A stretch of 64,000 bases of DNA, taken from assembly GCA_963720465.1 (NCBI GenBank), contig OY970393.1, positions 320,001-384,000 of the forward strand, given 5' to 3'. The notes beneath the pieces were generated by a model that saw nothing but the letters and a program-made list of their open reading frames with translations, ran no database searches and had not been told where the DNA came from. This document shows, one piece after another, positions 9,982 through 62,930 of the stretch. The DNA comes from Methanobacteriota archaeon. GTDB lineage: Archaea > Halobacteriota > Bog-38 > Methanoflorentales > Methanoflorentaceae. Made by a program: the position numbers and the translations under genes. Numbering within the stretch: the first letter of the stretch is position 1; the number at the start of each line of letters is the position of its first letter.

Positions 9982-10953
9982 TTGATCGGTGACAAGACAA
10001 GGATAACGCGCCCAAACGATTCAGTGAACGGTCAAAGCCTCGCTTCGCTCCAATTGACATTCTCGCTAAATCAACTTAATCATTACAAAAAATGGCGTAT
10101 AGAAGGTCTTGATCGGAAAAGCAGTAACTGGATGAACAAAGCGGCTGAGATTGTTTGGAACTGTACGCAGGGCATTATCAGCGAGATAACAATGGATGCG
10201 GTGCGGGATGTTGCCTTAACCAAATATACGTGCGTTTATTCAAAACGAAAGGTATTGTATTTCGCCAAAGGTCTTCTCAAATATCTTACTAAAACAACCT
10301 TCGACACTCGTTTTCAGTCGTTTGAACTCTTCTTGGCCATGCCTAAGGTGCTCAAAACGCGGAAGCACGTGACGAGCCGCATCGTGACTACAGAAGACGT
10401 TGAAAACGTGCTTAAAGCAATTGAACGGGCGTATAACGGCGGGCGAATTGACGCCTCTCATTATCACAACTACAACGCCTTAGTGTTATTCGGCGCGTTT
10501 ACAGGGCAACGACCTTTGGCAACAATAGCACGACTAAGAGTTGGCCAGTTCGAGGAAGCTGTAAAGATGCAGAAACCGTTCGTCGATATTCTTCCGGAGC
10601 AAGACAAAATTCGGATGCAACACTACTGCCCTCTTCACCCACAAGTTGTAGAGGCGATATTGCCAGTTTTAGATAGCCGGCGAGATAGCGAGACTGTTTT
10701 TGAGCAGCTTTCGTTTCAAGAGTGGCTTAAGCACACCAACATTCGGTTGCTGCACGGCGGCGCTCGCATAGTCAACGGAGACCTAAGAAAGTTTTGTGAG
10801 CAACATAGCGATATCATTCAGTGGGATCAGTCAAACAAGAATTACATTCTCACTCACGGCGTTTCCGGAGTTGATTGGCGGTTTTACAAACATCCGCTGC
10901 CTGAGCACGTGTACGACGTATATATGCAGTATTGGGCGGCTGTGCGATTCTGA
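9982..10953 (+). CDS. Tyrosine integrase catalytic part, int(C) of element B
   Basis: FTGQRP (R), QDKIR (K), GDLRK, LTHG, WRFYKH (Y); frame is open from 9679 through the tRNA half. Confidence 0.88.
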   Translation: MIGDKTRITRPNDSVNGQSLASLQLTFSLNQLNHYKKWRIEGLDRKSSNWMNKAAEIVWNCTQGIISEITMDAVRDVALTKYTCVYSKRKVLYFAKGLLKYLTKTTFDTRFQSFELFLAMPKVLKTRKHVTSRIVTTEDVENVLKAIERAYNGGRIDASHYHNYNALVLFGAFTGQRPLATIARLRVGQFEEAVKMQKPFVDILPEQDKIRMQHYCPLHPQVVEAILPVLDSRRDSETVFEQLSFQEWLKHTNIRLLHGGARIVNGDLRKFCEQHSDIIQWDQSNKNYILTHGVSGVDWRFYKHPLPEHVYDVYMQYWAAVRF

Positions 10954-11011
10954 TTCAATGCAAAAAAAGAAGGAAAAGAAAGCGCGAACGCTACCTACTA
11001 TTCACGCAGAC

Positions 11012-11353
11012 TTACCGCTTCACCGCTGCCATCTGTTCTGCTTTGGCCTTGAGAACCTGCCGCGCGAGTTCCTTTCCGGTTTCGTAATCTAAAACTTCGT
11101 GCACCTCGCTCTCACTCCATGGGAAGTTAGCGAACGCGCCCGCGAACAAGCCTTTGGCGTCTGCGGTGCTAATTGCGTATCCTGAGACTGCGTTTGCGAA
11201 CCAGCCGACCTCGAGTAGTCGACCACTCTTTAGCCCTTGGTCAATTCCTGCCCACAGCATCTCATTCAACTTTAAACCTTCAGCCGGATCAATCGGCCAC
11301 GGCGCATTCGGGTTCAAACGCCAAAGCGTTATATACTTCGGTATATCCCTCAC
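11012..11353 (-). CDS. Hypothetical protein (DUF3303-like), homolog of 62408-62719
   Basis: Shared pattern W...P..P.E..KL...GL..G.L...G....GYAIS. Confidence 0.7.
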   Translation of the reverse strand: MRDIPKYITLWRLNPNAPWPIDPAEGLKLNEMLWAGIDQGLKSGRLLEVGWFANAVSGYAISTADAKGLFAGAFANFPWSESEVHEVLDYETGKELARQVLKAKAEQMAAVKR

Positions 11354-11512
11354 CTCCTTTGACGTAGGCGGCAGTTGTTAGCCGCCGCTCAAAAACAAGT
11401 AAAAAGGCGCGTTAAAGGAATAAGTGTTGTTGTTACAGTCGCTTGTTACAGAGATTGACGTGATTTTTCAGTCGCGGAGCGACACACAATTTTGCAGTTC
11501 AATGACTAGAAG

Positions 11513-11640
11513 ACCAGCTAAATAAGAATCACATTCTCACTCATGGCGTTTCAGGAGTTGATTGGCGATTCCACAAACACCCTCTTCCCGCTTCGGTGTG
11601 ACGCCTATCTGAAATACTGGAGAGTTGTGAGACTCGACGC
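11513..11640 (+). repeat. Integrase 3'-tail copy T1
   Basis: Encodes NKNHILTHGVSGVDWRFHKHPLPASV..YLKYW. Confidence 0.85.
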
Positions 11641-11666
11641 TTTTGCCCAGTTAAAAAGGCCGCTCG

Positions 11667-11939
11667 CTATTCCTTGCCTCGCTTGAGTTTCTGATATTCT
11701 CGTTCAGTGATCCTGTCTGTCATTCCACTCCCCATAAAGACGCTCGCGCCGTGTGCAACTAATCCGATTCCCCAAAAACCGAGCACAAAGACGAACCACG
11801 GGAACCCGGCACCTGTAAACCACCATACGGCGACGAGAAAAAGGTTCACCACTACATAAATTGTGAAATGGATATAGAATCCGACCTTTTCTTCAGCCCG
11901 CTTTCGGGCCAGTCTCATCAGCTCTTCATCGCTTTGCAC
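11667..11939 (-). CDS. 2TM-domain membrane protein
   Basis: FYIHFTIYVVVNLFL...W...WGIGLVAH. Confidence 0.85.
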   Translation of the reverse strand: MQSDEELMRLARKRAEEKVGFYIHFTIYVVVNLFLVAVWWFTGAGFPWFVFVLGFWGIGLVAHGASVFMGSGMTDRITEREYQKLKRGKE

Positions 11940-11986
11940 TATTTCACCTCCGAGATATGGTCTCAGATTGGATCATGCTTTGTTCG

Positions 11987-12409
11987 TCAACTCCACTCGT
12001 AGAACACATTGGTTCCGACCTTATCGTCGCCCCCGCCTTCCACGACGCAGATGGTGCGGTTGATCCACGCAAGCTTCTCAGACGTCGTCATGAAGGTCAC
12101 GGTGCCCGTGAGCTTCCCTCCCGCGCCAGGGGCTTTTCCTGCATAGCAGAGTTTCCAGACTACGGAATCGCCGTCAGTCGTGGTCATGACCCCTTGCGCG
12201 GTGCCCGTTGTTATGCCCGTGGGCCGTACAAGATTGCGCATAGTTCCCATATTGGTGGCCTTGACGCCTTTGGCCCTTCCAAAGCCGGTAATCTCGCCAG
12301 TTACGCTATACTCAGATTCAACGCCTTCGGATCCTACGGATTTTATGGCAAACCCTCTTGGAGTGATTTTTTCCTCAAATAGCTTCTCTCCTATGGCCAA
12401 AATCTTCAC
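11987..12409 (-). CDS. Hypothetical beta-rich protein; paralog of 47435-47857
   Basis: 124/140 aa identical to the paralog by manual count. Confidence 0.8.
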   Translation of the reverse strand: MKILAIGEKLFEEKITPRGFAIKSVGSEGVESEYSVTGEITGFGRAKGVKATNMGTMRNLVRPTGITTGTAQGVMTTTDGDSVVWKLCYAGKAPGAGGKLTGTVTFMTTSEKLAWINRTICVVEGGGDDKVGTNVFYEWS

Positions 12410-12500
12410 CTGTTGCGCTGATTCTGCCTTCAGTATTTATTAGCTACCCCCAACGCGAGCGAAAAAAAGCAGATTGACGCACGCGGAGCAAGCATTCTCA

Positions 12501-12562
12501 ACATAAGCTGCCTGAGCAGGTCTACGACGTATATATAAAATATTGGCAAAATACCCAGCTAG
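12501..12562 (+). repeat. Integrase 3'-tail copy T2
   Basis: cataagctgcctgagcaggtctacgacgtatatataaaatattgg. Confidence 0.8.
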
Positions 12563-12607
12563 AAAATTAAACTGTCGCTAACAGTTTGATCAAATGAACA
12601 CTGAAGC

Positions 12608-12805
12608 GTGAGGAGTAAAGCCTGGGTTAACCTCTTTGTGAGTGCTCTTATCATCGCTACCATCATCGTTGCAGTCACCGATGCTCTTGAATTTTATGTT
12701 GTCTGGAGTGGAAAAGCAAAAATAACGCCATTGTTCGTTATCTTGGTTATCGTAGTGACGATGGTACCTATGGCAATCAACCTCTGGGTTCACATTTTCA
12801 GGTAG
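12608..12805 (+). CDS. Small two-TM protein; paralog at 47036-47233
   Basis: Frame conserved in both copies. Confidence 0.65.
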   Translation: MRSKAWVNLFVSALIIATIIVAVTDALEFYVVWSGKAKITPLFVILVIVVTMVPMAINLWVHIFR

Positions 12806-12860
12806 CTTGGCAAGGCGCCATATCGCGGCTCATAAAAGGATTAGAGTCGAGTAGGGTACC

Positions 12861-12930
12861 TACCAGCATCAGCTCCCAGATTCAATGCATGATATCTACA
12901 TGAATTATTGGGTAGATGTGCGTTTAACGA
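12861..12930 (+). repeat. Integrase 3'-tail copy T3
   Basis: Encodes YQHQLPDSMHDIYMNYWVDVRL. Confidence 0.8.
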
Positions 12931-13072
12931 CCTAAGCTCATTTCTTATGCTTCCTCCGGGTCACAGCAGCGCGATCAATGAACAACGTTTTTGTTTGCCC
13001 GCCCATTTTGGTGTACATCGGAAGACCGTTTGTCAGGCACGCACGAGGAAACTCGATCTGAGTGGCGTAGAG
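12915..13072 (+). pseudogene. Leader and first codons of a third methyltransferase copy, truncated
   Basis: Matches 15373-15530; ends at KLDLSGVE. Confidence 0.75.
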
Positions 13073-13726: not shown

Positions 13727-13790
13727 TTAGTTTGGCAGCGCACACAACAAAAAGTTAGGCTAAATACGCTAAAGATCCTTGCAATACCGT

Positions 13791-13932
13791 GATACGATCG
13801 GGTGTGATCAATCAAATCGATCGTATGCTTGACTCACGGAGTTCGCGGTGTCGACGGGAAGCAGCACAAGCATCCGCTGCCGGAACACGTGTACGACGTG
13901 TATATGCGATATTGGGCGGATGTGCGATTCAC
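13791..13932 (+). repeat. Integrase 3'-tail copy T4
   Basis: Encodes LTHGVRGVDGKQHKHPLPEHVYDVYMRYWADVRF. Confidence 0.9.
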
Positions 13933-13995
13933 ACCGTGGAAAGACCTGTAGTGACTGCTGACAGGTGAAAAGATAACATAACAACGGGAGGTTAA

Positions 13996-15005: not shown

Positions 15006-15160
15006 GTGGAGTTTAGGGAACATCCAAAATCCGCAAGCTCTCAACTAAAAAGATAGGATCTACCACAAATCAGACTACCTCCGCGGCTTGCTAACACCGT
15101 CGACCAAAAAATCGATATCTTCGAAACCGAGCACACTGGCACTATAGCTCTTTTTGGAAG
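15006..15160 (+). pseudogene. int(N) remnant
   Basis: GTSKIRKLSTK..PQIRLPPRLANTVDQKIDIFETEH vs GKSKIGKLSAK..YPQLRLPLQYANTVGEVADVFETEH (ORF 26740). Confidence 0.75.
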
Positions 15161-15195
15161 TGGGTCAAACGAAGGAAGATCCCGATGTCACAGTT

Positions 15196-15392
15196 TCCCG
15201 GCATTTCGTGCTTGGTGACCTGCGGAGGTTGTGCGAAGAACAAGGCGATACGATAGGGTGGGTCAATCAAATCGCGGTATATTATGACGCACGGCGTCAG
15301 CGGTATCGACTGGAAGCACTATAGCATCCGCTGCCGGCTAACGTGTACGACGTCTATATGCAGTACTGGGCGGATGTGCGTTTAACGATCTA
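15196..15392 (+). repeat. Integrase 3'-tail copy T5
   Basis: HFVLGDLRRLCEEQGD...MTHGVSGIDWKHY..HPLPANVYDVYMQYWADVRL, with indels. Confidence 0.9.
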
Positions 15393-15503
15393 AGCTCGTT
15401 TCTTATGCTTCTTCTCGGTCACAGTAGCGCGGGGAACGAACAATGTTTTTACTTAGCCAGCCCATTTTGGTGTACAATCGGAAGACATTCGTAAGGTAGT
15501 ACG

Positions 15504-17906: not shown

Positions 17907-18420
17907 TTAAGCGTTCCGATTTAGCGCCGAGTCTGAGCGTGAAACCAACGTGAATAAGACCGAACGGCCGATGTTGCGTCTTCCCACGTGCCCACTAAAA
18001 TAGTGGAGGTGCGCTCGCGACCCTGCTAAAATCGATGTGACAAACACAGTGAGGGTCAGGGCAAGCTGTTCTTTCAACTCAAGCGCGAACGTTCGCAAAT
18101 ACGACCCTTCAAGCCGTTTGGCTCTGCCGAGGCAATAGCTGCAGGCCGCTCCGTAAATGACCATATACCGTAGTTTAGCATCTAGCTGGGCCCGTTCAAC
18201 GCTTTTTATAAGATCTTCCAGCGGTATTGTGTGCAGGTAGGCGGCAAAGAGGTTATAGATTGCCTCTCTGGTCTCGGCTTTAACTTTCGGGGTGTATATG
18301 CTTTGCACAAAAGGCAGATTGATCCTGCAGCTGATAATGGCGCTGCGAGAACGTGCTGAAAGTAAGTGTAGTTTTTCAAATGCAATTCAGGTTTCTTTGG
18401 GCAACTGCTAACTGTCATTT
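17907..18420 (-). pseudogene. Backbone family 2 (YNLFAAY...ALELKEQLA) copy, 3'-truncated, with upstream gene end
   Basis: First ~94 aa match 22195-22644. Confidence 0.75.
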
Positions 18421-20429: not shown

Positions 20430-21000
20430 TTCTTTTTCGATTCCTTCGATCTCTACCCATTCAGCAGCGCGGTGGCTAAACACGTAGTTGCGCCTGAAAA
20501 AGCCCTTGGAGCACGCTGCGGTTCATTATAACTGCAAGATTGATGCAACCAAAGGGTTCGAATTGGAATCTCATCACTTGGAAGTTCGTTCTTCGTGGTA
20601 CCCGCCTTCGTAGATTTCGAGCACTGAAATCGCAAGCTTCTCGGCGTCGTGCGTGCACATCTCCTGCTGCAACACGTCAATGATCTGGAGGAGAGGTGGC
20701 TCAGCAGCCTTGTCAACGTCTGGGTGCCCACGCGCCCTCCGCTAAAATCGATGTGACAAATGTGGCGAGAGACTGGGCAAGCTGTTCTTTCAACTCAAGC
20801 GTAAAAGTTCGCAAATACCACCCATCAGGCAGTTACACTTGCTGAGGCAGTGCCTACAGGCTAAGCTGCAAACGACCACGTGCTGCAGCTTAGCATCTCG
20901 ACACGCTCTTTGGAGGCTATCTTTTAACCGATCGAACGGCCCTGTGTGGATGCACGCCGCAAAGAGGTTGTAAAGAGCATGCTTCTGCTAGTTGCTTCTT
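20430..21000 (-). pseudogene. Degenerate backbone family 2 copy plus start of its downstream gene
   Basis: Colinear with 22050-22620. Confidence 0.8.
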
Positions 21001-22194: not shown

Positions 22195-22644
22195 TCACTT
22201 GGAAGTTCGTTCTTGGTGGTACCCACCTTTGTAGATTTCCAGCACCGAAATCGCAAGCTTCTCGGCGTCGTGCGTGCACATCACCTGCTGCAACACTTCA
22301 ATGATCTGGCGAAGCGGTGGCTCAGCACCCTCTTTATCATCTACGCGCCCACTCGGGTGAGTCAGAATCGATGTGACAAACGTAGCAAGGGTGTGTGCAA
22401 GCTGTTCTTTTAACTCAAGCGCGAACGTTCGCAAATACGACCCGTCAAGCCGTTCGGCCCTGCCGAGGCAGTAGCTGCAGGCCGCTCCGTATATGACTAC
22501 ATACCTGAGCTGCGCGTCTCGCCGGGCCCGTTCGACGCTGCCAATCAGCTCTTCCAGCGGCACGGTGCGAATGTAGGCAGCGAAAAGGTTGTAAAGAGCC
22601 TGCTTCGTCTCATTTGTGTCTTTCTTAACATTAACTCCTTGCAC
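22195..22644 (-). CDS. Backbone family 2 protein, intact copy (149 aa, helical, CSYC)
   Basis: Only intact member of a family with five further fragments in the window. Confidence 0.7.
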   Translation of the reverse strand: MQGVNVKKDTNETKQALYNLFAAYIRTVPLEELIGSVERARRDAQLRYVVIYGAACSYCLGRAERLDGSYLRTFALELKEQLAHTLATFVTSILTHPSGRVDDKEGAEPPLRQIIEVLQQVMCTHDAEKLAISVLEIYKGGYHQERTSK

Positions 22645-23048
22645 AAAGGTTGAATCTGTGCTGTAAGTGATAACGCGACTGTAAGCACGTGCTGAAAGTG
22701 AATTACGAGATTAGAGTGTTTGTTTTTAGTTACTGCTAATCTCGCAGATCTCAAGTAACGACATCGCCACCTTTTGTGCATCGTACTCCACGTGCCTGTG
22801 CAGCACCTTCGCTATCTCATTAAGGGTCGATTCATCTCCTTAGGGCAGGGGCCAGACCGCGTAAACCTGCGCCGCCTGCTGTGCCACGGCGCGACGTCGA
22901 CCGATCCCTCCGTAAGGAGTTGCGACCCAAGCGCGGCGCTTAGCTGTGAACCGATGCTGAAGACTGACGGTCATCACCTGCAAAAAACCGAAAAATGCGC
23001 GAACACATAAACTATATGACCCTGTCTGTGCGAGAGTAGGTTCGCATT

Positions 23049-26739: not shown

Positions 26740-27164
26740 ATGCAGCACATCGGAAAGTCAAAAATCGGCAAGTTATCTGCCAAAGGGAATGACTACCCAC
26801 AACTTCGCTTGCCTCTACAATACGCAAATACTGTAGGCGAGGTAGCTGATGTCTTTGAGACTGAACACGAGGGAAAACAAGCATTTCTCATCGTGACAGA
26901 ACATAGTGTGCCAAAGGAAGACACGGTTTTAAAACCGAGAGAAGAAGTTTTAAAACCATGTGCAGATTTGGCACAGCCTTTAACGGAAATCCTTCCTAGA
27001 AGTGCACATGCTTCCGCGGAACCGTTCGCGACAGACTCGCGCTCGAAAAGCACCGCAGAAAGCTTTATTATCAATACTCGGCTAGTAAGCTGTGCTGCGT
27101 CAGGCAGTCGCTTTGCGTGCGCAAGCCCGGGTAGTGTAGCGGCCTATCATGGAGCCCTGTCGAG
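26740..27164 (+). CDS. int(N) of element B (YPQLRLP domain); reads through tRNA promoter and 5' half
   Basis: ORF 26740-27219 crosses the tRNA in the same phase as the frame leading into ORF 9982. Confidence 0.78.
27055..27075 (+). promoter_or_regulatory. BRE/TATA-like tRNA promoter
   Basis: gcagaaagctttattatcaa upstream of the tRNA; kept in all three copies (one substitution at 6020). Confidence 0.6.
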
Positions 27165-27197
27165 GCTCCGACTCGGGTTCAAATCCCGACTCGGGCG
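27125..27197 (+). tRNA. tRNA-Asp(GTC)
   Basis: Acceptor GCCCGGG/CTCGGGC+G; anticodon arm GGAGCC-CTGTCGA-GGCTCC; T-arm TCGGG-TTCAAAT-CCCGA; T-tract follows. Confidence 0.96.
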
Positions 27198-27464
27198 CTC
27201 CTTTTTTGCTTTCTTTTGAACAATTGGAGTCTCACACAGCTCTTGATTATATGATTCAGTACTTTCGAACGATCTTTCCAATTTAGCTAATTTAGCTAAA
27301 TGCGGCTCCACAAAAAATCCCCGAATCCCATCAATCTCAATTTCATAGATATTCACGATTTGACCTGCGAGTTCTTTGAAGTCTCGTGGCAAGCGAATGA
27401 TGGGATAAGAAAATGTCGGATTACGCGATTGGAGTGAGATTTTTGTGGTGAATATTTTTTTCAT
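27147..27464 (-). CDS. int(N) of element C (YPIIRLP domain); reads antisense into the tRNA 3' half
   Basis: Ends ERPSRDLNPSRSLDRAP; same frame as KRPSRSLNRAY at 45890. Confidence 0.8.
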   Translation of the reverse strand: MKKIFTTKISLQSRNPTFSYPIIRLPRDFKELAGQIVNIYEIEIDGIRGFFVEPHLAKLAKLERSFESTESYNQELCETPIVQKKAKKERPSRDLNPSRSLDRAP

Positions 27465-27670
27465 TAGTATTAAGACTAACAAATTTTTGGATAATAAACT
27501 TGTTATTTGAAGCATCTTGCGATGATCATTCACCACAACGGCCTAACTCGGTGGTGTCAAGCGGAAGTTGTGAAGCAAGTTAGCTATGTAGTGTAGTCGC
27601 TAAATGAGCATCAAAAAGCAGAGAGAGAAACTTTTGAAATAGCATATAGTGTTTATATTTTACAAAGACG

Positions 27671-28696
27671 TTGCGTACGATGGCCGAAAACAAACAACAA
27701 CATTTTGTGGCCAAATCATATCTGAAAAGTTTTTGTCTGCAAAATACGGAATCACTCTATCGCTTCGATCTAGTAGCTAGCAAATCGAAAAAGCGAAATA
27801 TCGAGAAGATTTTTCGAGAACCTTATTTCTATGCCGATGGCTCGGTGGCCCCGATATTCGAGCTTGCATTATCTGCATTAGAGGATAAGCACGGTCAAAC
27901 CATTCAACAAATTTTGAAGACGCAAACACTCACAATCACCTCGCTTAAGGATTTCATGTACCTGCATCTTTTAGTTCTCATTACAAAAACGCGAACAAAA
28001 GCATCAAGAGAAGAGATAGAGGATATGGCTCGTTCTTCCTTAATTAGAAAACTTCCCTATCTAGCTGAGTCTGAAATGGCTAGAGAAGCTCTTAATAAGT
28101 TCATCGAGCAAAAATCGCCGCATTTAGATGTCTTGAAATTCGTGTCTAAGCATTCATATGCGGTCACTGATTTGGCGCCCACGCTATTAATCAATAAGAC
28201 AGATCCCTTTACGCCCTTCATTACGTCTGATTCTCCGGTGATCTTTCACAACCTAATCGACGGAGATTTGACGGGTCTTATTTGCAAGGGCTTAATCATA
28301 GTTCTGCCGCTTAATGAAAAAGTTGCTCTCTGTCTATTTGACATTTATAGATATAAACCAAAGAACGTAATAAACAACAACATTGTAGTATCAGATAACA
28401 AAGATGTTAATACGCTGAATCGACTGCATATAATAAACGCAGCAGGATTTCTCATTTTTTCAAAGCAGCAGTATCACGACTATGTTTTGTCGCTTCAAAC
28501 AGACCTGTTATGGAACCCGCTTAACAAACCTAATTCCTTGAAATTGTCATTTTTTGAAATATACAATGAGGATTCTTTTCGCGGAGATAGACTCTTTGAG
28601 CCGAGAAATGGAGAGATAGCTGCTTCTTTGAACGAGGCGATTAAAGAGATACGCAAAGAAGTTACGTCATTGCCGAGTGATCGCGCGAGAACCTAA
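27671..28696 (+). CDS. DUF4238-like protein
   Basis: QHFVAKSYLKSF, FY, FITSDSPV, PL motifs; AT-rich. Confidence 0.8.
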   Translation: MRTMAENKQQHFVAKSYLKSFCLQNTESLYRFDLVASKSKKRNIEKIFREPYFYADGSVAPIFELALSALEDKHGQTIQQILKTQTLTITSLKDFMYLHLLVLITKTRTKASREEIEDMARSSLIRKLPYLAESEMAREALNKFIEQKSPHLDVLKFVSKHSYAVTDLAPTLLINKTDPFTPFITSDSPVIFHNLIDGDLTGLICKGLIIVLPLNEKVALCLFDIYRYKPKNVINNNIVVSDNKDVNTLNRLHIINAAGFLIFSKQQYHDYVLSLQTDLLWNPLNKPNSLKLSFFEIYNEDSFRGDRLFEPRNGEIAASLNEAIKEIRKEVTSLPSDRART

Positions 28697-28699
28697 ATA

Positions 28700-29455
28700 C
28701 TACGGCAAAGCCTTAATTGCCTCTATCTTGAGTTTGTTTAAGTCTTTGTTGTGCCCTAATTCGTATTTCTTATCTGCCTCTTTCGAAATTTCGTACAGGG
28801 CATCTATGGCAACATTCACAGCCGCCACCGCATTAAAGTCGCCTTCTATTACTCCTGATGGCGACCAATGAGCGATCTGCGAGAACTCGTTATAGATTAC
28901 ATCATATTGGTCGCGAATCTGTCGCCGTAGCTTCGTGTCACTTATCCTGTTGATTAAATCGGAAAGCGACATCTTGCTAAAGGTCAAACTCTCTCTAGGG
29001 AGATAATTGAAGCCGAAATCTTTTTCCGCTCGGTCTACCATGTCTGCACCAAACTTGTGCTCAACCTTTTCATACAGCCATTTGTGTTTTGCGGCCAGCG
29101 AAACCGTGTTCGCTACTTTCTTTCCGTCTTCGTAAACCATAAACAAGCGCCATTTGTCGGCGATATCGTGATAGTCTCTGTAATACTCAAAGTTGATGAC
29201 CCCTTCGAGAATAGTTCTAGCTACAAGAATAGCTTCATGGTAGAACCCGTTTTCCGCCAGCAATTGAATGCTCTGGCTATATAAAATCGTGCGATGTAAG
29301 AAATGATAAACAAAGAAATTATTGTTTCTCTCTTTCTCGTTCGTCTCAACAGAGCATTTTGTTCGAAACTCTTTCTCAACAGCTTGCGCAAGAATGATAA
29401 AATCTTTAAGATGAGCTCTAAGAGCTGGCAAGTACATTGATTCATGTCTTGGCAT
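28700..29455 (-). CDS. DUF5677-like (HEPN-like) protein
   Basis: EAILVARTILE and YNEFSQIAH. Confidence 0.7.
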   Translation of the reverse strand: MPRHESMYLPALRAHLKDFIILAQAVEKEFRTKCSVETNEKERNNNFFVYHFLHRTILYSQSIQLLAENGFYHEAILVARTILEGVINFEYYRDYHDIADKWRLFMVYEDGKKVANTVSLAAKHKWLYEKVEHKFGADMVDRAEKDFGFNYLPRESLTFSKMSLSDLINRISDTKLRRQIRDQYDVIYNEFSQIAHWSPSGVIEGDFNAVAAVNVAIDALYEISKEADKKYELGHNKDLNKLKIEAIKALP

Positions 29456-30940: not shown

Positions 30941-30946
30941 TCGTTG

Positions 30947-43746: not shown

Positions 43747-43884
43747 ATGGCTAAAGCTAAGGATACGCAGTCCAAAAAATCGGCAATCGTTAAGCCGCTA
43801 ACTGGCACTATGTCAGTCGATGAGTGGCTTGCGGCGCCAAAGAAACGGCGCACAAAAAAGCGGAAGCGAAGAAGTAAGAAGTAA
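43747..43884 (+). CDS. Small basic protein (45 aa)
   Basis: MAKAKDTQSKKSAIVKPLTGTMSVDEWLAAPKKRRTKKRKRRSKK; below the ORF-track cutoff. Confidence 0.45.
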   Translation: MAKAKDTQSKKSAIVKPLTGTMSVDEWLAAPKKRRTKKRKRRSKK

Positions 43885-44517
43885 GCCCCGGTGCCCTGGT
43901 GATGCGTCTATTTTGCCAGGGTGTTATCATCCTGAAAATATGGGCTTTTTGTCTCTGTACAATTAAGATAATTCCGACCGGACGTCACGGGAAAATAACG
44001 ACGCAACGCGCCCCGTTTATCCCGACCAGGAAGGGGCGATATATCTATAGACTGCCTCGACCGACTCAATGAGATATAAAACTCACACTAAGCGACCACC
44101 ACCAAAATCCGAATCTCAACGAACGCCGTGGCAGCCGTAACGACTTCTCAAAACAACGAAAATGTATCCTCTTGTACATGCTTCGTTATATGCTATCATC
44201 TAGCGAAATTGGCACCTACAGAAGTGCGTTGCCCCCCAGCTTTTTTGAGACGCGTAGCCTTCCACTAGGTTACGATCGCCGTTGTCATCTGGATGATATT
44301 GTCGTACTGTGTGAGCTCGTGTACTGTCACTGAACCGCCTAATAGGCTGCCCTCCGTGTACGTATACTCCATGTAAACGCTGGGGTCATGGCCCGTCGCG
44401 TCGTAATAAACGTAGCTAGAGCTACTGTTTTGGTAATCCAACAACGTACAGCAGAGCGAGTCCCTTATTGCGAGTATTATCGTAGGCCGCGCCGCTTGCC
44501 AGACTGACGGTTGCGCG

Positions 44518-44751
44518 TTACGCGACTCGTCGAAGCGCGAAATACGCACCCATGTAGAAGATATCGTCTGACCCGAGTGCGTATTCCGCAATCGCATCAT
44601 CTAGCAATGGGTGTATCCGTTCAATAAAAGTATCCCACCACACCTCATTGCTGACATTTTCAACTCCTATAGGGTCTTGACTTTTCATTTCCGACGTGAT
44701 GCGGTCAACGAGTCTTTGAAGGAGTTCTGCTCGTTCCTTATCAATTCTCAT
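44518..44751 (-). CDS. Hypothetical protein
   Basis: 77-aa ORF downstream of the integrase. Confidence 0.45.
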   Translation of the reverse strand: MRIDKERAELLQRLVDRITSEMKSQDPIGVENVSNEVWWDTFIERIHPLLDDAIAEYALGSDDIFYMGAYFALRRVA

Positions 44752-44845
44752 ATTCCCATCTTTTGCCGTGTTTTTTCAGACATATGTAGAACGAGTATTT
44801 CGACTTAAGCATTTTCTTTGCATTGTAGCAGGCCCGGCAATCTAC

Positions 44846-45890
44846 TCAGACTGCGAAGCGTACGCCACCCCAGTACTGCATATACACATCATAAACCGAA
44901 TCAGGAAGCGGGTGCTTGTAGCATCGCCAATCTACCCCTGAAGCACCATGCGTCAAAATATATGCCCTATTCGAATGCTCCCATTGAATGATATCACCGT
45001 GCTGCTCAGCAAATTTTCGCAGGTCACCCATTACGAAACGAGCATTGCATTGAGACAGCAGTATCTTGTGTATCTTGTGTTCCCGCAGCCACCTTTGAAA
45101 GGATAATTGCTCAAAAATAAACTTGTCATCATCTCGACCGTCGAGAAGCGGGCGGAAAGCGTCAACGACTTGGGGATGGAATGGGCAGTAATGCTGCATT
45201 CTGATTTTATCACACTCTGGCGGGATATCGAGTACAGGCGTATCCTGGCTTATCGCCTGATTAAATTGGCCTACCGTGAGTTGCGCTATCGTTGCTAGAG
45301 GCCTCTGTCCGGTGAACGCGCCGAATAGCACGATTGCTCGGTAGTTGATACGGTGATACTCGTCTATTTCATCTTTTTCAGCAGCTTGTTCGATAGCGAT
45401 GAGCACATTTTCGATATCTTGTTTGGTGACGATTCGAGCAGTGATACGCTTACGTTCTTTAAGCGCTTTCGGCATTTAGAGGAATAGTTTGAACGCTTCG
45501 TATCGTGTATCGACCCGCGCTTTTGCTAAATAACTGAAGAATGCTTTCGAGAAGTTGATGACTTTCCGCTTGGCGTAAATGTCGACGTATTTACGCAGCA
45601 CGTATTGGCGCAATACATCTACAGTCGTTTTGCTTATCTCTCCCTTTGTGCAGTCCCAAAGAATCTCCGCAGCCTTTCGTAGCCAGATTATTGTTTTTCT
45701 GCTTAGTCCGACTGCCCGCCTATCAGTATAACTTGTTAACTGGCTTTTGGAAAACGTTAGTATGAGCGTTTCCAGTGTGTCGCAATTGTTGTTCGGCGAA
45801 CAACGGCCGCTTGAATTGCAGTCTGCGCAAGAAGGCCTAGAATCAGCTAAAATGCCTAAATAAGCCCTGTTGAGGCTCCGACTCGGGCGC
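44846..45890 (-). pseudogene. int(C) of element C with in-frame TAA at 45476-45478
   Basis: ...FKLFL*MPKALK...; all catalytic motifs as in ORF 9982. Confidence 0.88.
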
Positions 45891-46079: not shown

Positions 46080-46757
46080 ATGATTGACATGCATTTGAAC
46101 TATAAAATGGTGAGTCTGGCAATTGCCGCGCTTGTAGTATTTTCGGTATTTTCCGGAGTTGCAGCTATTGCCACAACGGCGGCAGCAAAGAAAGGAACTG
46201 AGGTTGCGGTGACCGTAAGCAGTGACCCCGCTGGCGTGGTGTCAGGTCAAGTCGCTAACCACACGAAACTCAAGCTCCCTGCGGCAACAGTGAATAGCGT
46301 CACGTTCACGGCAACGGAAAGCGGTGTTTGGAGTGTGACCCGTCCATCAGGGGCATCGTCGATGTCACCGTCTCAGCCCGCGATGACAATTTACACGCAG
46401 GTCTCCGGCGTTTATACCGTTAGCTTGACTCCATCAGGCTCCACCAAGCCGATTTGGTCCGCGACAATAAAGGTCCCGTTTTCGGTGACCGTAAGCAGTG
46501 ACCCCGCTGGCGTGGTGTCAGGTCAAGTCGCTAACAACGCGCAAATCGACCTTCCTTCAGGAGCGGTGAATTCAGTCACGTTCACGGCAACGGAAAGCGG
46601 TGTTTGGAGTGTGACTAATCCATCAGGGGCATCGTCGATGTCACCGTCTCAGCCCGCGATGACAATTTACACGCAGGTCTCCGGCGTTTATACCGTTAGC
46701 TTGACTCCATCAGGCTCCACCAAGCCGATTTGGTCCGCGACAATAGCGGTGGTCTAA
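46080..46757 (+). CDS. Secreted protein with two near-identical 92-aa beta-rich domains
   Basis: Signal peptide; 276-nt period duplication (46207-46469, 46483-46745). Confidence 0.75.
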   Translation: MIDMHLNYKMVSLAIAALVVFSVFSGVAAIATTAAAKKGTEVAVTVSSDPAGVVSGQVANHTKLKLPAATVNSVTFTATESGVWSVTRPSGASSMSPSQPAMTIYTQVSGVYTVSLTPSGSTKPIWSATIKVPFSVTVSSDPAGVVSGQVANNAQIDLPSGAVNSVTFTATESGVWSVTNPSGASSMSPSQPAMTIYTQVSGVYTVSLTPSGSTKPIWSATIAVV

Positions 46758-46914
46758 AAACTCAAAGATGCTCAGCTCAGACAAGAGATACAGATATTTC
46801 AGGGTTCGTGAAAGGGTTTACCCCTTTTCTTCTTTCTTTGAAAATTAATCATGCGTGTAGCGGTCTGTGTTCAGCACTTGTGTGGCGACTCTAAAACTTG
46901 TGGAGTTCAACTCT

Positions 46915-46980
46915 TAAACGACACATCTCCCCAAGATCTTATATACACGTCTTAAACCTGCTCAGGCAGCGGATGCCAGC
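46915..46980 (-). repeat. Integrase 3'-tail copy T6
   Basis: Reverse complement catccgctgcctgagcaggtttaagacgtgtatataagatcttgg. Confidence 0.8.
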
Positions 46981-47035
46981 AGGTACTCCATTCCCACCTG
47001 CCATTTTGTGAGTTGCAATAGGGTGCCTAGCCAAG

Positions 47036-47233: not shown

Positions 47234-47281
47234 GCTTCAGTCGATATTTGATTCAAAAACTGCTAGTGACAGTTTACTTGC

Positions 47282-47343
47282 CTAGCTGGGTATTTTGCCA
47301 ATACTTTATATAAACGTCATAAACGTGCTCAGGCAGCGGATGT
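47282..47343 (-). repeat. Integrase 3'-tail copy T7
   Basis: Encodes HPLPEHVYDVYIKYWQNTQL. Confidence 0.85.
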
Positions 47344-47434
47344 CGAGAATGCTCACCTCCGCGGCGTCAATCTTCCTTTTTTCGCTCATGCCGAGGGTCG
47401 CTAATAAATACTGAAGGCAGGATCAGCGAAACAG

Positions 47435-47857: not shown

Positions 47858-48025
47858 ATACGCACATCCTTCCAATACTTCATGTAGACATCGTACACTG
47901 AATCAGGTAGTGGGTGGCGATAATTGCTCCATTCGACGCCGAAACGCCGTGAGTTAGGATATAAGCGCAGTTTGACTCATTCCACCCGACGAAGTCGTCG
48001 CGTTGTTCGGCAACTTTGAGCAAAT
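47858..48025 (-). repeat. Integrase 3'-tail copy T8
   Basis: AEQRDDFVGWNESNCAYILTHGVS..YRHPLPDSVYDVYMKYWKDVRI. Confidence 0.88.
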
Positions 48026-48207
48026 TAGAGAGCTTTTTACCGTGGCGCTCAAATATGCCAAGTTTGATCTGTACGCCTTTCGAGGCGCAAATACCAGTCA
48101 TATGGTATGAGGGTGTACTATATGGCCAAATGTTGGTTAGTCTAAAAATAACGAACCTATTGGGAGTTTGAGAGTTACTGGGCTCCCGACCTGAGTGTTA
48201 CGCAACA

Positions 48208-49008
48208 CTAAACTCGCAGGTACACGACGTTCATCGCTCTATTTCTGTCGGAGAGATCCATCCATCTCGTGACTGACCTACCCCACGCAGGGTCTCGTGG
48301 AATGGTGTTGAACAGGGGAAACTGATTCAAAATTTTGATGCGATTATCCCATTTTGTTATCGTGCGTGCATCCTTGAGGGCCCATTTCGTGGCGGTCATC
48401 CCCATCTTCCGCATACCCCAGTTGCTCCTTAACTTGGCGAATCTTGACTGGATATTAAACACAATCTCCGCTCCCGGAAGACCATCTGCGAGCGATGAGA
48501 AGAACGATTTTATGTCAAACCCTTGAAAGAATATGAGCACTCCGGCCGCTATCATAAATACGCCGTTTTCAGTATCAATAATGTCGTCAAGCCAACTGGG
48601 ATCCAGCAACGATTTTGCGATGCACGTCGACCGGGCAGTTTCGGGGATCAGTCGCCGTCGAAGGTCGATGACCGCAGGAAGGTCAAGGTCGTACCAGTGG
48701 ATCGATCCGTTGTCGACCCGGTAATATGTGGTGTCTAGACCCGCCCCAAGATCAATGACCGACGCTTTGGGATGCTCAGCGATGAACGCGCGGGTCTTGT
48801 CGTCGACATGCTTCGCTATTGCCGCGAACATGAGATTTCCGAGTACGCCGAGAGTTTTGTCGAACCTTGCAAAATCGTAATTAAGCTGTTCAACGAGTTC
48901 AATAGCCTTCATATCGTTAAGGATGGAGGGGTTCTCTCGACTGAATTTTGCCCGCCCCCACAGAGGAACGAGTAACGTCTCCTCTACGCCACTCAGATCA
49001 AGTTTCAT
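48208..49008 (-). CDS. Class I SAM methyltransferase; paralog of 15504-16304
   Basis: Same length (266 aa), highly similar. Confidence 0.88.
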   Translation of the reverse strand: MKLDLSGVEETLLVPLWGRAKFSRENPSILNDMKAIELVEQLNYDFARFDKTLGVLGNLMFAAIAKHVDDKTRAFIAEHPKASVIDLGAGLDTTYYRVDNGSIHWYDLDLPAVIDLRRRLIPETARSTCIAKSLLDPSWLDDIIDTENGVFMIAAGVLIFFQGFDIKSFFSSLADGLPGAEIVFNIQSRFAKLRSNWGMRKMGMTATKWALKDARTITKWDNRIKILNQFPLFNTIPRDPAWGRSVTRWMDLSDRNRAMNVVYLRV

Positions 49009-49121
49009 CGTGCGTACCTGGCGAAACGTCTTCCGATATACACCAAAATGGGTGGGTAAATAAAAACGTTGTGCATTGACCGAGCTGGGAGAGATCCAGA
49101 GGAAGCTTAACTAACGAGCTT

Positions 49122-49330
49122 AGATCGTTAAACGCACATCCGCCAGTACCTCATGTGCACATCATACGCTAAATCGGGCAGTCGGTGGCGATATTACTTC
49201 CACTCAACGCCTGAAACGCCGTGCGTCATTACGTAAGCGCGTTTCGACTCACCCCACGCTATAACGCCGCCCCGATACTCAGCGAACTTACACTGATCCA
49301 ACGTGCCAAAATGGCTTGAACACCGCACCA
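49122..49330 (-). repeat. Integrase 3'-tail copy T9
   Basis: KFAEYRGGVIAWGESKRAYVMTHGVSGVEWK*YRHRLPDLAYDVHMRY. Confidence 0.85.
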
Positions 49331-49534
49331 AGGGTATTTTCTGGCTCAGCGTGTCGCACCTGCCGTCATTGATGTAGGATAATATTGATCACTTTAAACG
49401 AAGGCCGCCGTTAGGTGTGACACAAAGGCCCTGTCACGGTTTCCCACACACACGACATGTCACGGTTTTACACGAAATCACTGCCTCACGCGGCCTTATG
49501 AAACCACGCGCACTTGGGATCGGAGATGAACGTC

Positions 49535-50614: not shown

Positions 50615-50704
50615 ACGATGAACATGGTTCGACGAACTCAGACAGCTCCTTTCTGAGCCGCCCCTGTTTGACGCTTCAAGAATGTATCTGCTAAGTCGTG
50701 AGAA

Positions 50705-50910
50705 ATTTAGTATCTGCCCAATACTGCATATACAAGTCATATATGTGTTCGGGCAGGATGCTTGTAATGCTTCCAATCGACTCCGCTGACTCCATGCGTC
50801 ATTATATACGCTCGGTTTGACTGATCCCACCCTATTGCATCGCCGTATTGTTCACAAAACTTACGGAGATCACCGAGCACGAAGTGCCTCTTGAACCGTG
50901 ATATGGGGAT
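50705..50910 (-). repeat. Integrase 3'-tail copy T10
   Basis: HFVLGDLRKFCEQYGDAIGWDQSNRAYIMTHGVSGVDWKHYKHP..EHIYDLYMQYWAD. Confidence 0.92.
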
Positions 50911-51061
50911 CTTCCGTCGTTTGGCCCGCATCCCAAAAGCTATAGTGAAAAACAGCTTCATCGTCTCCTTTTTTGCGTCTGTTTGATGAACGGAGCTCGC
51001 CAGCTCCAGGAAAAAAGTGTAAACTCGAGTGTAAACTTTCATCCAAGTATAGCCACACTAG

Positions 51062-51988
51062 CATGTCGGATCTCGCGCTAACATTCACGCTTGAGGACTT
51101 ACAGGCATATCTCACGCAGCGAGCAGCAGGACTGGCACGCAAGACCGTTATATGGTTGGAAAAGGCGGCAGAACTGTTATGGAATGCAACGAAAGGCATC
51201 GTGAGCGTATCCAGGCTACAAAACTTGCGTAACTACGTACTTAAAAAATATCGCGATATCGACGCCAAACGCAAAGTCCCACCGTTTGCACGTGCATTTC
51301 TCCACTACATGTCAAAAATCAGCTTCGACCAGCGGTACGCCGCGTTTGACTTGTTCTTACAGCTCCCACGGTCGGTCAAGGAGCGCAAGCACGTCACAAG
51401 TCGCATTGTGACTAAAGACGACGTTAAAAAGTGCTCAAAGCGATAGAACAAGCACATAGGACTGGGCGAGTTGACAACTACCTTTATCTCAACTACAAAG
51501 CCTTGGTGCTATTTGCCGCGTTTACGGGACAACGACCCTTGGCAACAATCGCACGACTTACGGTGGGGCAGTTCCAGGAAGTCGTGAAACTGGAAAAGCC
51601 CATCGTCGAAGTCCTTCCACAGCAAGACAAAATACGAATGCAGCACTACTGTCCGCTCCATCCACAAGTTGTTGAGGCGATAGTGCCCCTGCTGGACGGT
51701 CGATGAGATGAAGAGCTAGTTTTTGAACAACTGTCCTTTCAGCAGTGGCTTAAGCACAACGAAGTTCGCGTTGCACAGTAATGCTTTATGGTTAACGGAG
51801 ATTTAAGGAAGTTCTGTGAACAAATGGGCGACATATTGCAGTGGGATCAGTCAAACCGAGCGTATATAATGACGCATGGAGTCAGCGGAGTCGATTGGAA
51901 GCATTACAAGCACCCATTGCCGGAAAATGTGTATGACGTTTATATGAAATATTGGACGCAGACTGAGTTCAGAACGCAGGTATTATGA
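51062..51988 (+). pseudogene. Third integrase int(C), broken by frameshifts and a stop
   Basis: ORFs 50973, 51431 and 51788 together are colinear with ORF 9982. Confidence 0.88.
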
Positions 51989-53744: not shown

Positions 53745-53835
53745 AGTCATCGACATTGATTGGAAGCACTATAAGCAGCATCCTTTGCCCGAAAACGTTT
53801 ACAGCACGTACATGCGATACTGGGGCGATGTCTAA
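53745..53835 (+). repeat. Integrase 3'-tail copy T11
   Basis: Encodes IDWKHYKQHPLPENVYSTYMRYWGDV. Confidence 0.85.
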
Positions 53836-54252
53836 CTTGCTGGTTGATGCGTCATCGTGCCGAACGTATTTAAGGAGAAGGCGCAGGTGCTGAGTGAGCA
53901 ATCGCAGCCTATTCAGAAGTTAAGAAATAACTCGGTCAGCTCGGTTTTCACTTCGTAAGTCCCTTTTTAGTGCTTGCTGTGCGTCGGGTAGGTTTATAAG
54001 CCGCGTGAGGCAGGGATTGTGTGGGAAAGCGTGACAGCGCGTTTGTGCCACAGTTAACGGTGGCTTTCGCTGGAACGGGCAACGACTCGGAACTATTAAG
54101 CCGAGCGCTTGGAGAGGTCAAGGCAAAATTCTATGAGAAGTCGTACAGTCTACACGTTCTACGGCGCTCTCGCAAGCAAGTTTATTGAGGCTCTGCATTG
54201 AGAGTGCTACGTTCTAATGGCAGTACTAATGTCAGTTATTGCTTAGCCATCA

Positions 54253-58265: not shown

Positions 58266-58359
58266 GGAGGCTCTAGTGCTCTCCAACCTCTCTTTCTTTA
58301 CACGCAGTGGCGTGCTGAAACGCTAGGAAACTGCACGGGCGCGCCTAGCTCAGATTTTT

Positions 58360-58463
58360 AAGCTCACGCCTCCCCAGTACTTCATGTAAACGTCATAAAC
58401 CGAATCAGGTAGCGGATGCTTGTAAAATCGCCAGTCAATTCCGCTGACTCCGTGCGTGAGTAT
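58360..58463 (-). repeat. Integrase 3'-tail copy T12
   Basis: Encodes ILTHGVSGIDWRFYKHPLPDSVYDVYMKYWGGVS. Confidence 0.92.
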
Positions 58464-58487
58464 GATTCGACAGTTTTAAAGACTTAG

Positions 58488-59307: not shown

Positions 59308-59389
59308 TTCACCTCCTGTTGAATTTTAGTCCAATCTTTGTTTCAGTGTAATCATTATTTGTTTGTCTGCGATCATCTAAATATTAGAA

Positions 59390-59448
59390 CTCGACATCGC
59401 TCCAATACTGCATATAAACATCATACACGTGCTCAGGCAGCGGATGTA
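59390..59448 (-). repeat. Integrase 3'-tail copy T13
   Basis: Encodes HPLPEHVYDVYMQYWSDVE. Confidence 0.88.
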
Positions 59449-61656: not shown

Positions 61657-61756
61657 TATGAAGTGGGGCGCGATATCCGCGCCAAATGTATAAAGTCCAG
61701 CACCAATTGCGGTTTTGTTATACACTTAGCTAAACGATCAGGAGGCGCTCTGATTA

Positions 61757-61899
61757 TGACGGCTATGATTCCGCAATGTTACTTCTGTAAGCTCCACGAG
61801 CAAGGTATTAAATGCGCCAAATATGACCAAATCGCCCCCGAAATATTGGTTAACCTTAGAAAGTGCGCGTTTAAAGAAGATACCACCCCGGATAGGTAA
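61757..61899 (+). CDS. Small Cys-rich protein
   Basis: PQCYFCK...C..Y..I..EI....C; aggagg upstream. Confidence 0.45.
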
Positions 61900-62169
61900 A
61901 CGATGACGGTAATAGAGAGCGCAGTAAAATACGGATCTATCTTCTCTATTGGCCCCACCTTAACAGAGGGTGGCATTTGCGGCCTTATACCCAAATTCGG
62001 TTTCTATTCGGCACGCTCTGAATTCTAGAAACACGAGCCAAACTTTTCGAAGCGTCACCTTTAATAAAAGCTAAATTCTGCTGCAAATGCGGGAACAGCC
62101 TCTCTAATTGACTATCTTTTTGCGGGTTTGTTGAAGGCGCGTCCGCGTACTAACTAAGGTCGTCGAAGG

Positions 62170-62250
62170 TGACATGTTTCCAGTACTGCATATACAGATC
62201 ATAAACGTGGTCAGGCAGTGGATGCCGATAATTGCTTCACTCAACACCGC
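62170..62250 (-). repeat. Integrase 3'-tail copy T14
   Basis: Encodes GVE*SNYRHPLPDHVYDLYMQYWKHV. Confidence 0.88.
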
Positions 62251-62407
62251 GAACGCTGTGTGCGCATAACGGCCTTGACTCGGACTAGAACTGTAACACA
62301 AGTTAGTTACAGCAATGCTTATTTACGCCGAGCGTATAGTGTCTGGTTTCAAAAAACGGCGGTTGAGTAATCAATGCGGAGACCAACACACGCATGGAAG
62401 TGATAAG

Positions 62408-62719
62408 ATGTCCAAGTTTTTCATACGATGGCACGTTGACAATTTCAAGATGCCCGCTACTCCTGAAGAGACTGGGAAGCTCTTTATATCGATGCTCGAA
62501 ACGGTGGAAGCCGGTTTGCACACTGGCAAGCTTAAGGACTGGGGACAGCTCGGCAACGGACGGGACGGATATGCGATTAGTGAGTTAAACGAAGAGGAGC
62601 TTTTCGCTTGCATGCTCCAGTGGATGCCGTTTATAACGTTTGAGGTATTTCCGGTGGTCAGTGCCGACCAGTCGATGGAAGCACTAGACAAAGCAGTTGC
62701 GACGCTGCAGTCTCCGTAA
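62408..62719 (+). CDS. Hypothetical protein (DUF3303-like), homolog of 11012-11353
   Basis: GKLKDWG...GYAISE...FEVFPV. Confidence 0.72.
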   Translation: MSKFFIRWHVDNFKMPATPEETGKLFISMLETVEAGLHTGKLKDWGQLGNGRDGYAISELNEEELFACMLQWMPFITFEVFPVVSADQSMEALDKAVATLQSP

Positions 62720-62799
62720 AAAAGTGCTTCGGCGGTGGAGGAGAAAAGAGGAGCGACCTTACACTTTAAGCGGATGAGCTGCGACTGTTCACAGACTAG

Positions 62800-62930
62800 A
62801 GCGCACGTCTTTCCAATATTTCATTTACACGTCATACACGTTCTCTGGCAGCGGATGCCGATAATGTGCTCATGAAACGTCCCTAGCGCCACGCGTAAGA
62901 ACGTAACGCAATTTGACTCACTCCACGTAG
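62800..62930 (-). repeat. Integrase 3'-tail copy T15
   Basis: WSESNCVTFLRVA..HYRHPLPENVYDV*MKYWKDVR. Confidence 0.85.

Follow-up and report, generated by a model that had tools for sequence, protein, structure and literature searches.

The subject of this study is a 64,000-nt stretch of archaeal DNA (the window: genome bases 320001-384000 of contig OY970393.1, assembly GCA_963720465.1) from a Methanobacteriota archaeon of the family Methanoflorentaceae, in which a gene for a tyrosine recombinase (integrase) is followed by small accessory genes set between copies of the integrase gene's own 3' end. The genome is one contig of 2,313,764 bp with 51.7% G+C, and the flanking genes are markers of an archaeal methanogen: release factor aRF1, arginyl-tRNA ligase, HypE, an ammonium transporter and subunits of an F420-linked formate dehydrogenase. 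The sole RNA gene that ARAGORN and Rfam find in the window is that of a transfer RNA (tRNA-Asp, 27125-27198, + strand), and it is the target of integrated islands on both sides.

An earlier note on this DNA had counted three integrase genes and 15 orphan copies of the integrase C-terminal coding region. Three integrase loci are indeed there, but only int1 (9982-10953, + strand, 323 aa) is intact: int2 (44855-45796, - strand) is a pseudogene with an in-frame TAA, and int3 (51060-51970, + strand) is a pseudogene with a frameshift and stops that lies in an inverted segment. A search by tblastn with the Int1 protein adds an N-terminal integrase fragment at 6289-6483 (+ strand). As for the orphan copies, which we call tails, all 15 were located, both by tblastn with Int1 and by the profile scan that the note had suggested. 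Nine integrase genes of the genome, each represented by its last 300 nt plus 30 nt, supplied the nucleotide profile, which was run with nhmmer against the 2.31 Mb genome; the tails match it with E-values from 8.9e-9 to 5.4e-59, which rules out chance or an annotation artefact as their origin. They measure 65-266 nt, three of them exceeding the upper limit of the 60-210 bp first given. Their 5' starts fall at profile positions 30-240, and 15 of 15 end at 296-323, the region of the integrase stop, just as the note had it. The tails differ from one another and from int1, and they are spaced by one or two small genes in either orientation.

Behind int1, and on its strand, the first tail (11513-11639, profile 176-304) has a broken frame. 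The right part of the next (12492-12564, profile 231-303) opens a cassette with a small membrane-protein open reading frame (ORF) at ~12507-12866. Then comes a tail at 12844-12942 (profile 218-316, with homology from ~12820) whose left part is common to the tail at 46903-46993 and to L007 and L011, two of the related contigs and loci that we compared with the window and that carry L-numbers (L005, L007, L011, L033, L154 etc.). Tails at 13781-13938 (profile 150-308) and 15144-15403 (profile 56-319) complete this array, the latter followed by a methyltransferase cassette common to 48204-49262. Local duplication of the neighbouring integrase was rejected as the source of these tails, which are no closer to int1 than to other alleles. 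Tails on the - strand lie at 46903-46993 (profile 223-312), at 47274-47352 (231-309), where a second copy of the small membrane-ORF cassette is found, at 47861-48024 (132-296), at 49106-49347 (81-323) and at 50704-50969 (30-299, aa 231-314). A + strand tail (53746-53836, profile 211-298) stands downstream of int3 after an ABC-transporter gene pair. Finally, - strand tails lie at 58345-58464 (195-314), 59383-59447 (240-304, a minimal form), 62160-62262 (203-305) and 62800-62925 (172-298), from where the array continues past the window to an integrase pseudogene at genome positions 386190-387108.

The window is one example among many. At E<=0.01 the profile finds 64 features in the genome, namely 11 whole 3' regions and 53 truncated tails, and 48 of these 53 reach the integrase 3' end. 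Nearly all integrase remnants in the genome have their start beyond codon ~220; the interval of codons 25-165 contains no start at all. In fact, tails occur family-wide, in related genomes and contigs. To describe their layout we used a set collected by integrase protein match, made up of the genome, 80 metagenome loci and 75 genome loci. In this set, taken with its redundancy, adjacent features within 6 kb lie on the same strand in 192 cases and on opposite strands in 14, and their spacing has a median of 1031 bp (interquartile range 716-1841). The 6 kb downstream of whole 3' regions contain 140 tails on the same strand and 3 on the opposite one, as against 39 and 26 upstream. Thus the arrays begin at the integrase gene, with the tails downstream and on its strand. 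After removal of redundancy 370 features are left, of which 347 retain the 3' end, 229 are without the 5' part and 22 are fragments that lack the 3' end. Related integrases of other lineages (Methanoregula, Methanoculleus, other Methanomicrobiales, Archaeoglobi) have longer C-termini, and none of the eight loci examined has a tail within 10 kb; the arrays are therefore not an automatic by-product of this integrase family.

A variant of the layout is seen at three integrase genes of the genome (1902386-1902933, 2104919-2105376 and 1558432-1558968), each of which is followed 20-50 bp on by a second tail that begins at profile 123-153. The arrangement is conserved among the three loci with 73-77% identity, and likewise in L005, L007, L008 and L009. 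The second tail could represent an 'empty' cassette, or else belong permanently to one type of element.

What do the arrays carry? Between the tails we find a GNAT acetyltransferase, a flavodoxin, a protein with two transmembrane segments, LCM-type and ICMT-type methyltransferases, TrmB-family regulators, an ABC transporter pair, a nitroreductase and a ferredoxin/aldo-keto reductase fragment, with cargo on either strand. None of the 30 cargo ORFs scanned is a replication, capsid or transfer gene, and judged by its sequence the cargo is a collection of accessory genes with no plasmid or virus backbone. The cassette with the small membrane ORF, ~360 bp long and coding for a protein of ~65-70 aa, opens with the gene end …WQNTQLGN-stop. 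It lies at ~12507-12866 and ~47342-46990 in the window, at three more places in the genome and on several contigs; in total we counted 15 copies, distributed over 11 sequences, and saw 10 different neighbours upstream and 6 downstream. Four copies have an identical junction into the left part of a tail and then run into a different tail end each, and in L011 the copy runs on into unrelated DNA. The same holds more widely. When the 268 cargo segments between co-oriented features were clustered, 137 were singletons and the others formed 40 families of at least two members; at least two upstream neighbours were found in 16 of the 40 families and at least two downstream neighbours in 11, and in 28 of them the start of the following tail is constant to within 10 nt. 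Both the clustering and the membrane-ORF family bear out the idea that one cassette occurs in many contexts. From these junctions it appears that the left part of a tail travels with the preceding cargo and its right part with the following cargo, as would be expected of units that are cut at a point within the tail. The membrane-ORF cassette also contains 174-bp tandem repeats whose copy number varies between two contigs that are otherwise alike (L033 8327-8849 versus L034 9337-9685).

Comparison between relatives brings us to the joints themselves. We counted insertions or deletions (indels) of at least 200 bp between related sequences, and both edges fell in tails at matching profile positions in 4 of the 10 indels of a first set and in 7 of a larger set of 30 non-look-alike events. 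In such cases two tails in the longer form correspond to a single hybrid tail in the shorter one. The crossover intervals of the seven (246-285, 115-300, 217-285, 248-263, 240-285, 163-299 and 78-290) all include profile 248-263; one of the seven is the L005/L007 event again, from a second contig copy. In five of them the left partner keeps a whole 3' region, and among these is an event in the window, where 1611 bp from 10935 to 12507 are present here and absent in L011. Two further indels start at the integrase end and are without a right-hand tail. Some joints can be placed closely. In the L005/L007 comparison the hybrid tail agrees with one parent as far as CATCC and with the other from GAGCAC, and between L033 and L154, whose flanks are 97% alike, the switch falls within 17 nt that cover the same core; what L154 lacks relative to L033 is the small membrane-ORF cassette. 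These two best-resolved crossovers thus point to a stretch of 9-17 nt at the codons HPLPE. In int1 the corresponding putative core is CATCCGCTGCCTGAG (10891-10905, + strand, codons H304-E308), and the left edge of the 1611-bp indel lies just after it. In line with exchange at this point, integrase bodies that are 95-98% alike can have 3' ends that are only 60-64% alike from profile ~240.

The comparison of cassette content between relatives that the earlier note had called for therefore gives whole-cassette differences, with the integrase's own 3' end often one of the partners. Its view of the tails as recombination substrates fares well too, the tails being recombination joints at which cassettes are gained or lost exactly. 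Its capture slot 'just after' the integrase needs to be moved: the gene does head the array, but the crossover probably lies inside its last ~20 codons, around GCTGCCTGA, so that each event would swap the C-terminal end of the integrase.

The integrase itself is remote from known families. Int1 matches no Pfam and no NCBIfam family at E<=0.01, PF00589 (Phage_integrase) and PF16795 being among those unmatched, and no PDB sequence at E<=10. An AlphaFold2 model built from 40 homologues has a mean predicted local distance difference test score (pLDDT) of 82.2, and when it is compared with the PDB by Foldseek, the integrase of Tn1549 (E 5.9e-5), Cre and lambda Int come up with probability 1.00 and template-modelling (TM) scores of 0.40-0.48; the VchIntIA structure 2a3v ranks 40th, with E 0.15. 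By its modelled two-domain fold, with a C-terminal catalytic domain like that of Cre and lambda Int, Int1 is a member of the tyrosine recombinase superfamily. Four residues, R177, R269, H292 and Y302, are invariant across the 40 homologues, and by their positions they are the putative catalytic Arg...Arg...His...Tyr of the superfamily. The tails span the region that encodes R269 to the end, and the minimal ones hold the last ~20 codons only, after Y302. A large protein database contains 633 Int1 homologues at E<=0.001. Those with a name are called integrase or hypothetical protein and belong to Halobacteriota archaea, and no relatives were found in plasmid records or viral contigs. Integrase matches are present in 18 of 18 other genomes of the same family, many of them with dozens, and in 0 of 12 genomes of other families.

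The gene also has a more conventional partner, the tRNA-Asp gene. The left attachment site (attL) of the int1 island (9785-9908, + strand) is a near-identical direct repeat of the right one (attR, 27041-27164), and within it nt 1-40 of tRNA-Asp are copied at 9869-9908, ending in the anticodon loop. This copy stops 74 nt before the start of int1, and the integrated gene is whole. Repeats at both places with int1 adjoining one of them make int1 the head of a 17-kb island in tRNA-Asp; as in other tRNA-targeting genomic islands, partial-tRNA direct repeats bound the island and the integrase lies beside one. Five other integrase genes or pseudogenes of the genome have a fragment of tRNA-Asp, tRNA-Val or tRNA-His at their 5' end, all broken at the anticodon loop. 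The ordinary attachment site of the integrase is, by these fragments, the anticodon loop of a tRNA upstream of its gene, and the arrays lie inside tRNA-Asp islands.

More than one such island has piled up here. On the right-hand side of the tRNA gene, nt 29-53 of tRNA-Asp recur at 45863-45887 beside the 5' end of int2, and beyond the window another tRNA-Asp fragment (nt 33-74, genome 387178-387219) lies beside the integrase pseudogene at genome 386190-387108, which indicates two further stacked islands. To the left, an older island end (6106-6483, + strand) combines a fragment of tRNA-Asp nt 1-24 (6106-6129) with the N-terminal integrase fragment at 6289-6483. An ammonium transporter gene (7188-8420) and a DUF6328 gene lie at 6484-9868, between this old tRNA-Asp fragment with its integrase remnant and the attL of int1, a position that would place both in the remains of the older island. 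The stretch from the tRNA-Asp gene to the tRNA-Asp fragment of int2 (27199-45862) includes the genes for an F420-dependent formate dehydrogenase (35748-39028), which by their position may be inside an integrated island without any tails. Upstream of int1 its reading frame has no stop for ~100 codons (9680-9981), across the attachment site and the tRNA-Asp copy. Public gene calls of Int1 homologues (425-443 aa) take in this upstream stretch as protein, and the N-terminal extension of ~100 residues is likely an annotation artefact.

How could such arrays come about? On balance we favour, with modest confidence, a site-specific exchange of cassettes whose site lies within the last ~20 codons of the integrase gene, each insertion replacing those codons. 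The tyrosine integrase of the tRNA-Asp islands would have a second recombination site in its own last ~20 codons (HPLPE...), with a core of about GCTGCCTGA. Small integrase-less cassettes, with a median of ~1 kb, would each carry a 5'-truncated integrase 3' end as their site, and recombination of this site with the end of the resident gene, or with any tail of the array, would insert the cassette. The newcomer would supply new terminal codons to the integrase, and the displaced old end would become an orphan tail downstream. Repeated insertion would then build a co-oriented array of tail-cargo units behind the integrase, from which the reverse reaction would remove units. We infer that the integrase is the catalyst, that circles are the intermediates and that the gene-proximal site is preferred for insertion, as we do the origin of the truncated left parts. 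A bolder proposal, which we hold tentatively and a little short of evenly, is that this is an archaeal counterpart of the integron made from unrelated parts, in which the integrase would act within its own last 20 codons, each capture would rewrite its C-terminal helix and turn the old end into the next boundary, and the tail would have the role of attC.

Several observations weigh against cassette exchange of this kind. Wherever an integrase has a recognisable site, that site is a tRNA fragment which lies just upstream of the gene's 5' end and breaks off in the anticodon loop, so that the enzyme already has an ordinary target, and the orthologous integrase of a sister species (L081) has no same-strand tail in the 10 kb downstream. 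Of the 30 indels, 23 are not tail-bounded; several are edged by long direct repeats of other kinds (48-247 bp of overlap), and one is a whole 5.2-kb island bounded by tRNA attachment sites. Each indel can be read as a gain or as a loss. The change-points between related tails scatter from profile 123 to 286, only about half of them falling in 225-261, and such a spread is expected for homology-guided exchange. Both resolved crossovers fall in the longest run of identity between the partners (11 and 17 nt), and for that reason they fit site-specific and homology-driven exchange alike. The tails themselves show few signs of being sites in their own right. Their codon-position pattern is that of working genes (core third positions 0.66 versus 0.67), which led us to drop the idea of constraint at the DNA level, and 29 of the 48 genomic tails contain stops or frameshifts; in sequence they look like recently inactivated gene ends rather than sites under a constraint of their own. 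A conserved hairpin was absent when 60 of the 84 non-redundant tails were folded with RNAalifold on both strands (energy 0.0, no pairs), and an attC-like hairpin was accordingly discarded. The 5' junctions are spread over profile 25-250 and no common motif was found at them, weak k-mer counts being traced to shared cargo ends. The ends of 3'-truncated tails clustered at 246-255 in a first look and spread over 248-284 in the larger non-redundant set. The pile-up of tail starts near 240 and that of truncated ends at 248-284 may be an effect of profile detection, and the cluster of truncated ends was given no weight as evidence.

Two resemblances were noted by eye only and are kept as leads: the tail core is similar to the anticodon loops of tRNA-Asp and tRNA-His, and the tail consensus has an imperfect dyad around the core.

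Many of these points would be natural if the arrays were nothing but decayed tandem islands. Successive islands would have integrated at the same tRNA, their attachment sites and integrase 5' parts would have been deleted (deletions that were perhaps favoured because they lock the cargo in), and the leftover 3' ends would serve as homology patches for host recombination, with no dedicated cassette system at all. Stacking at tRNA-Asp is plain from the attachment-site fragments at 6106, 9869, 45863 and genome 387178, and dispersed change-points (123-286), crossovers in the longest identity tracts, tails that look like recently inactivated genes and irregular 5' junctions all suit this scenario. 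Yet truncation points are not spread over the 970-nt gene, as the codon limits given above show (starts after codon ~220, none at codons 25-165), and 3'-less fragments are few (22 of 370). Tails come without accompanying tRNA fragments, and the units are ~1 kb long compared with 5-20 kb for islands. Moreover, the relatives of the integrase in other lineages stack no tails, and the finding of one cassette behind 10 neighbours would require repeated insertion through 11-17 nt of identity. Identity of this length is typical for site-specific recombinases and short for strand-exchange recombination. Module exchange by homologous recombination between tandemly integrated elements is, on the other hand, discussed for archaea in the accessible text of PMC8371274. 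Overall, the scarcity of remnants that reach beyond the last third of the gene and of fragments without a 3' end, the lack of tRNA fragments beside the tails, the ~1-kb units and the ten neighbours disfavour pure decay of stacked islands. Decay joined with homologous recombination we regard as less likely than cassette exchange at the integrase gene end, of which it is the most serious competitor.

Far less probable is that some other enzyme or process, such as a different island recombinase or the copying of gene ends by replication or repair, makes the joints and that the integrase gene is a mere target. The crossover link between integrase and tails is, after all, an inferred one, and the long direct repeats (48-247 bp overlaps) at the edges of several indels would suit a second activity; however, no other recombinase gene is present among the 30 cargo ORFs scanned, and the one gene that constantly accompanies the arrays is that of the integrase. 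We give slightly less credence still to the last ~60 nt of the integrase gene being a promoter or terminator for the adjoining cargo, kept by selection on cargo expression: minimal tails do all keep profile ~240-300, and the YDVYM codons TATGATGTnTATATG resemble, by eye, a TATA box ~25 nt before the stop, but many alleles have TACATG in place of the TATA-like run, cargo beside tails in the window is split about evenly between the two strands, conservation of third codon positions is no higher in tails than in working genes, and cassette-precise indels would be left unexplained.

If cassettes are indeed exchanged at the integrase gene end, the nearest likeness is to integrons, including those of archaea (bioRxiv 10.1101/2022.02.06.479319, in its accessible part), where a tyrosine recombinase heads a co-oriented array of small, mostly single-gene accessory cassettes. 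In both cases the cassettes are bounded by one family of repeats, their content varies between relatives, and the same cassette occurs in different arrays. The parts are different. The recombinase described here has no Pfam or NCBIfam match and so cannot be assigned to IntI, and its repeat is the truncated 3' end of its own coding sequence rather than attC. The crossover would fall inside the recombinase ORF, and the arrays lie within tRNA-integrated islands whose integrase has a tRNA site. Hence, of the features that define an integron, we find an array beside an integrase gene that varies between relatives, and neither an IntI-type integrase nor attC hairpins. By analogy, the logic of the arrays is that of integrons, carried out with different parts.

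Other systems share single aspects. Phage 21 and e14 in icd, and islands in genes for tRNA and transfer-messenger RNA (tmRNA), insert at a gene's 3' end, for which they bring along a replacement. The ssrA islands of Dehalococcoides, as far as the accessible text of PMC3146451 describes them, are an element type that inserts in this way. As proposed for our arrays, the target stays whole through the incoming look-alike end, the displaced end becomes a 5'-truncated orphan on the far side, and repeated events give tandem units. Here, however, the target would be the integrase gene itself, the units are ~1 kb and without integrase, and the orphans come from many alleles. The SSV (spindle-shaped virus)-type 'suicidal' integrases (PMC8371274, accessible part) are archaeal tyrosine integrases too, with a recombination site in their own gene, and they leave integrase fragments in chromosomes. 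In that system the integrase gene is cut on integration at a tRNA-matching site, leaving int(N) and int(C) at the two ends of the element, whereas here the tRNA site is upstream and the gene remains whole; no tRNA-matching site lies inside the int1 ORF, and PF16795 is unmatched. We therefore rejected the tails as int(C) halves, the tRNA site being upstream of an intact gene and matching int(N) halves being few. The pTN3 integrase, according to the accessible text of PMC5495485, produces outcomes like those of homologous recombination on short segments with low specificity, and low-specificity recombination of short similar sequences would account for the dispersed change-points seen here. The likeness is one of described behaviour; the integrase of the arrays has no match to plasmid records. 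In streptococci, integrase-less units flanked by attachment-type repeats (cis-mobilizable elements, CIMEs) pile up beside an integrative and conjugative element (ICE) that supplies the recombinase. Such accretion resembles our arrays in that integrase-less units bounded by attachment-type repeats accumulate next to a recombinase source; the streptococcal units are larger and are bounded by ordinary attachment sites, not by ends of the recombinase gene. The earlier note knew of no described system with this layout, and our search leads to the same answer: in the accessible article text of the literature searched, including PMC8371274 and PMC4158269, arrays bounded by 3'-end copies of their own integrase are not described.

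What would follow from an integrase that acts on the end of its own gene? Cassette capture would have had an independent origin, with a coding sequence as the site instead of the structured attC, in a domain of life from which few gene-capture platforms are known. It would explain the dozens of small accessory genes in hot spots of this group of peat methanogens (53 tails in the 2.3 Mb genome studied here), and it would provide a recombinase whose site is set by a short coding motif. Given that the C-terminus would be exchanged at each event, capture may also bear on the activity or specificity of the enzyme. Even if homologous recombination makes the joints, a conserved gene end would be acting as a portable patch of homology that structures the evolution of islands across an archaeal family.

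The window contains further repeats. One family of ~250-480 bp has copies at 18008-18363, 20610-20986 and 22227-22702 inside the int1 island and ~7 further copies in the genome, several of them near other tails or tRNA fragments; the ORFs that overlap two of the copies (17907-18308 and 22195-22644, both - strand) have no Pfam match, and the family may be another recurrent island module or joint. Adjoining int2, a 225-aa ORF (46080-46757) whose Pfam match is below threshold only contains a tandem internal duplication (46204-46469 and 46480-46745, 266 bp, 93% identity). A 197-bp repeat at 42654-42850 has at least 9 other copies in the genome with 74-82% identity, and the adjoining 575-bp segment (42901-43475) is 97% identical to two other loci; together they look like a small mobile element. 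Lastly, the segment 34650-35361, with a 186-aa ORF at 34751-35311 (- strand), is possibly an insertion sequence, and four other copies of it occur in the genome with 81-95% identity.

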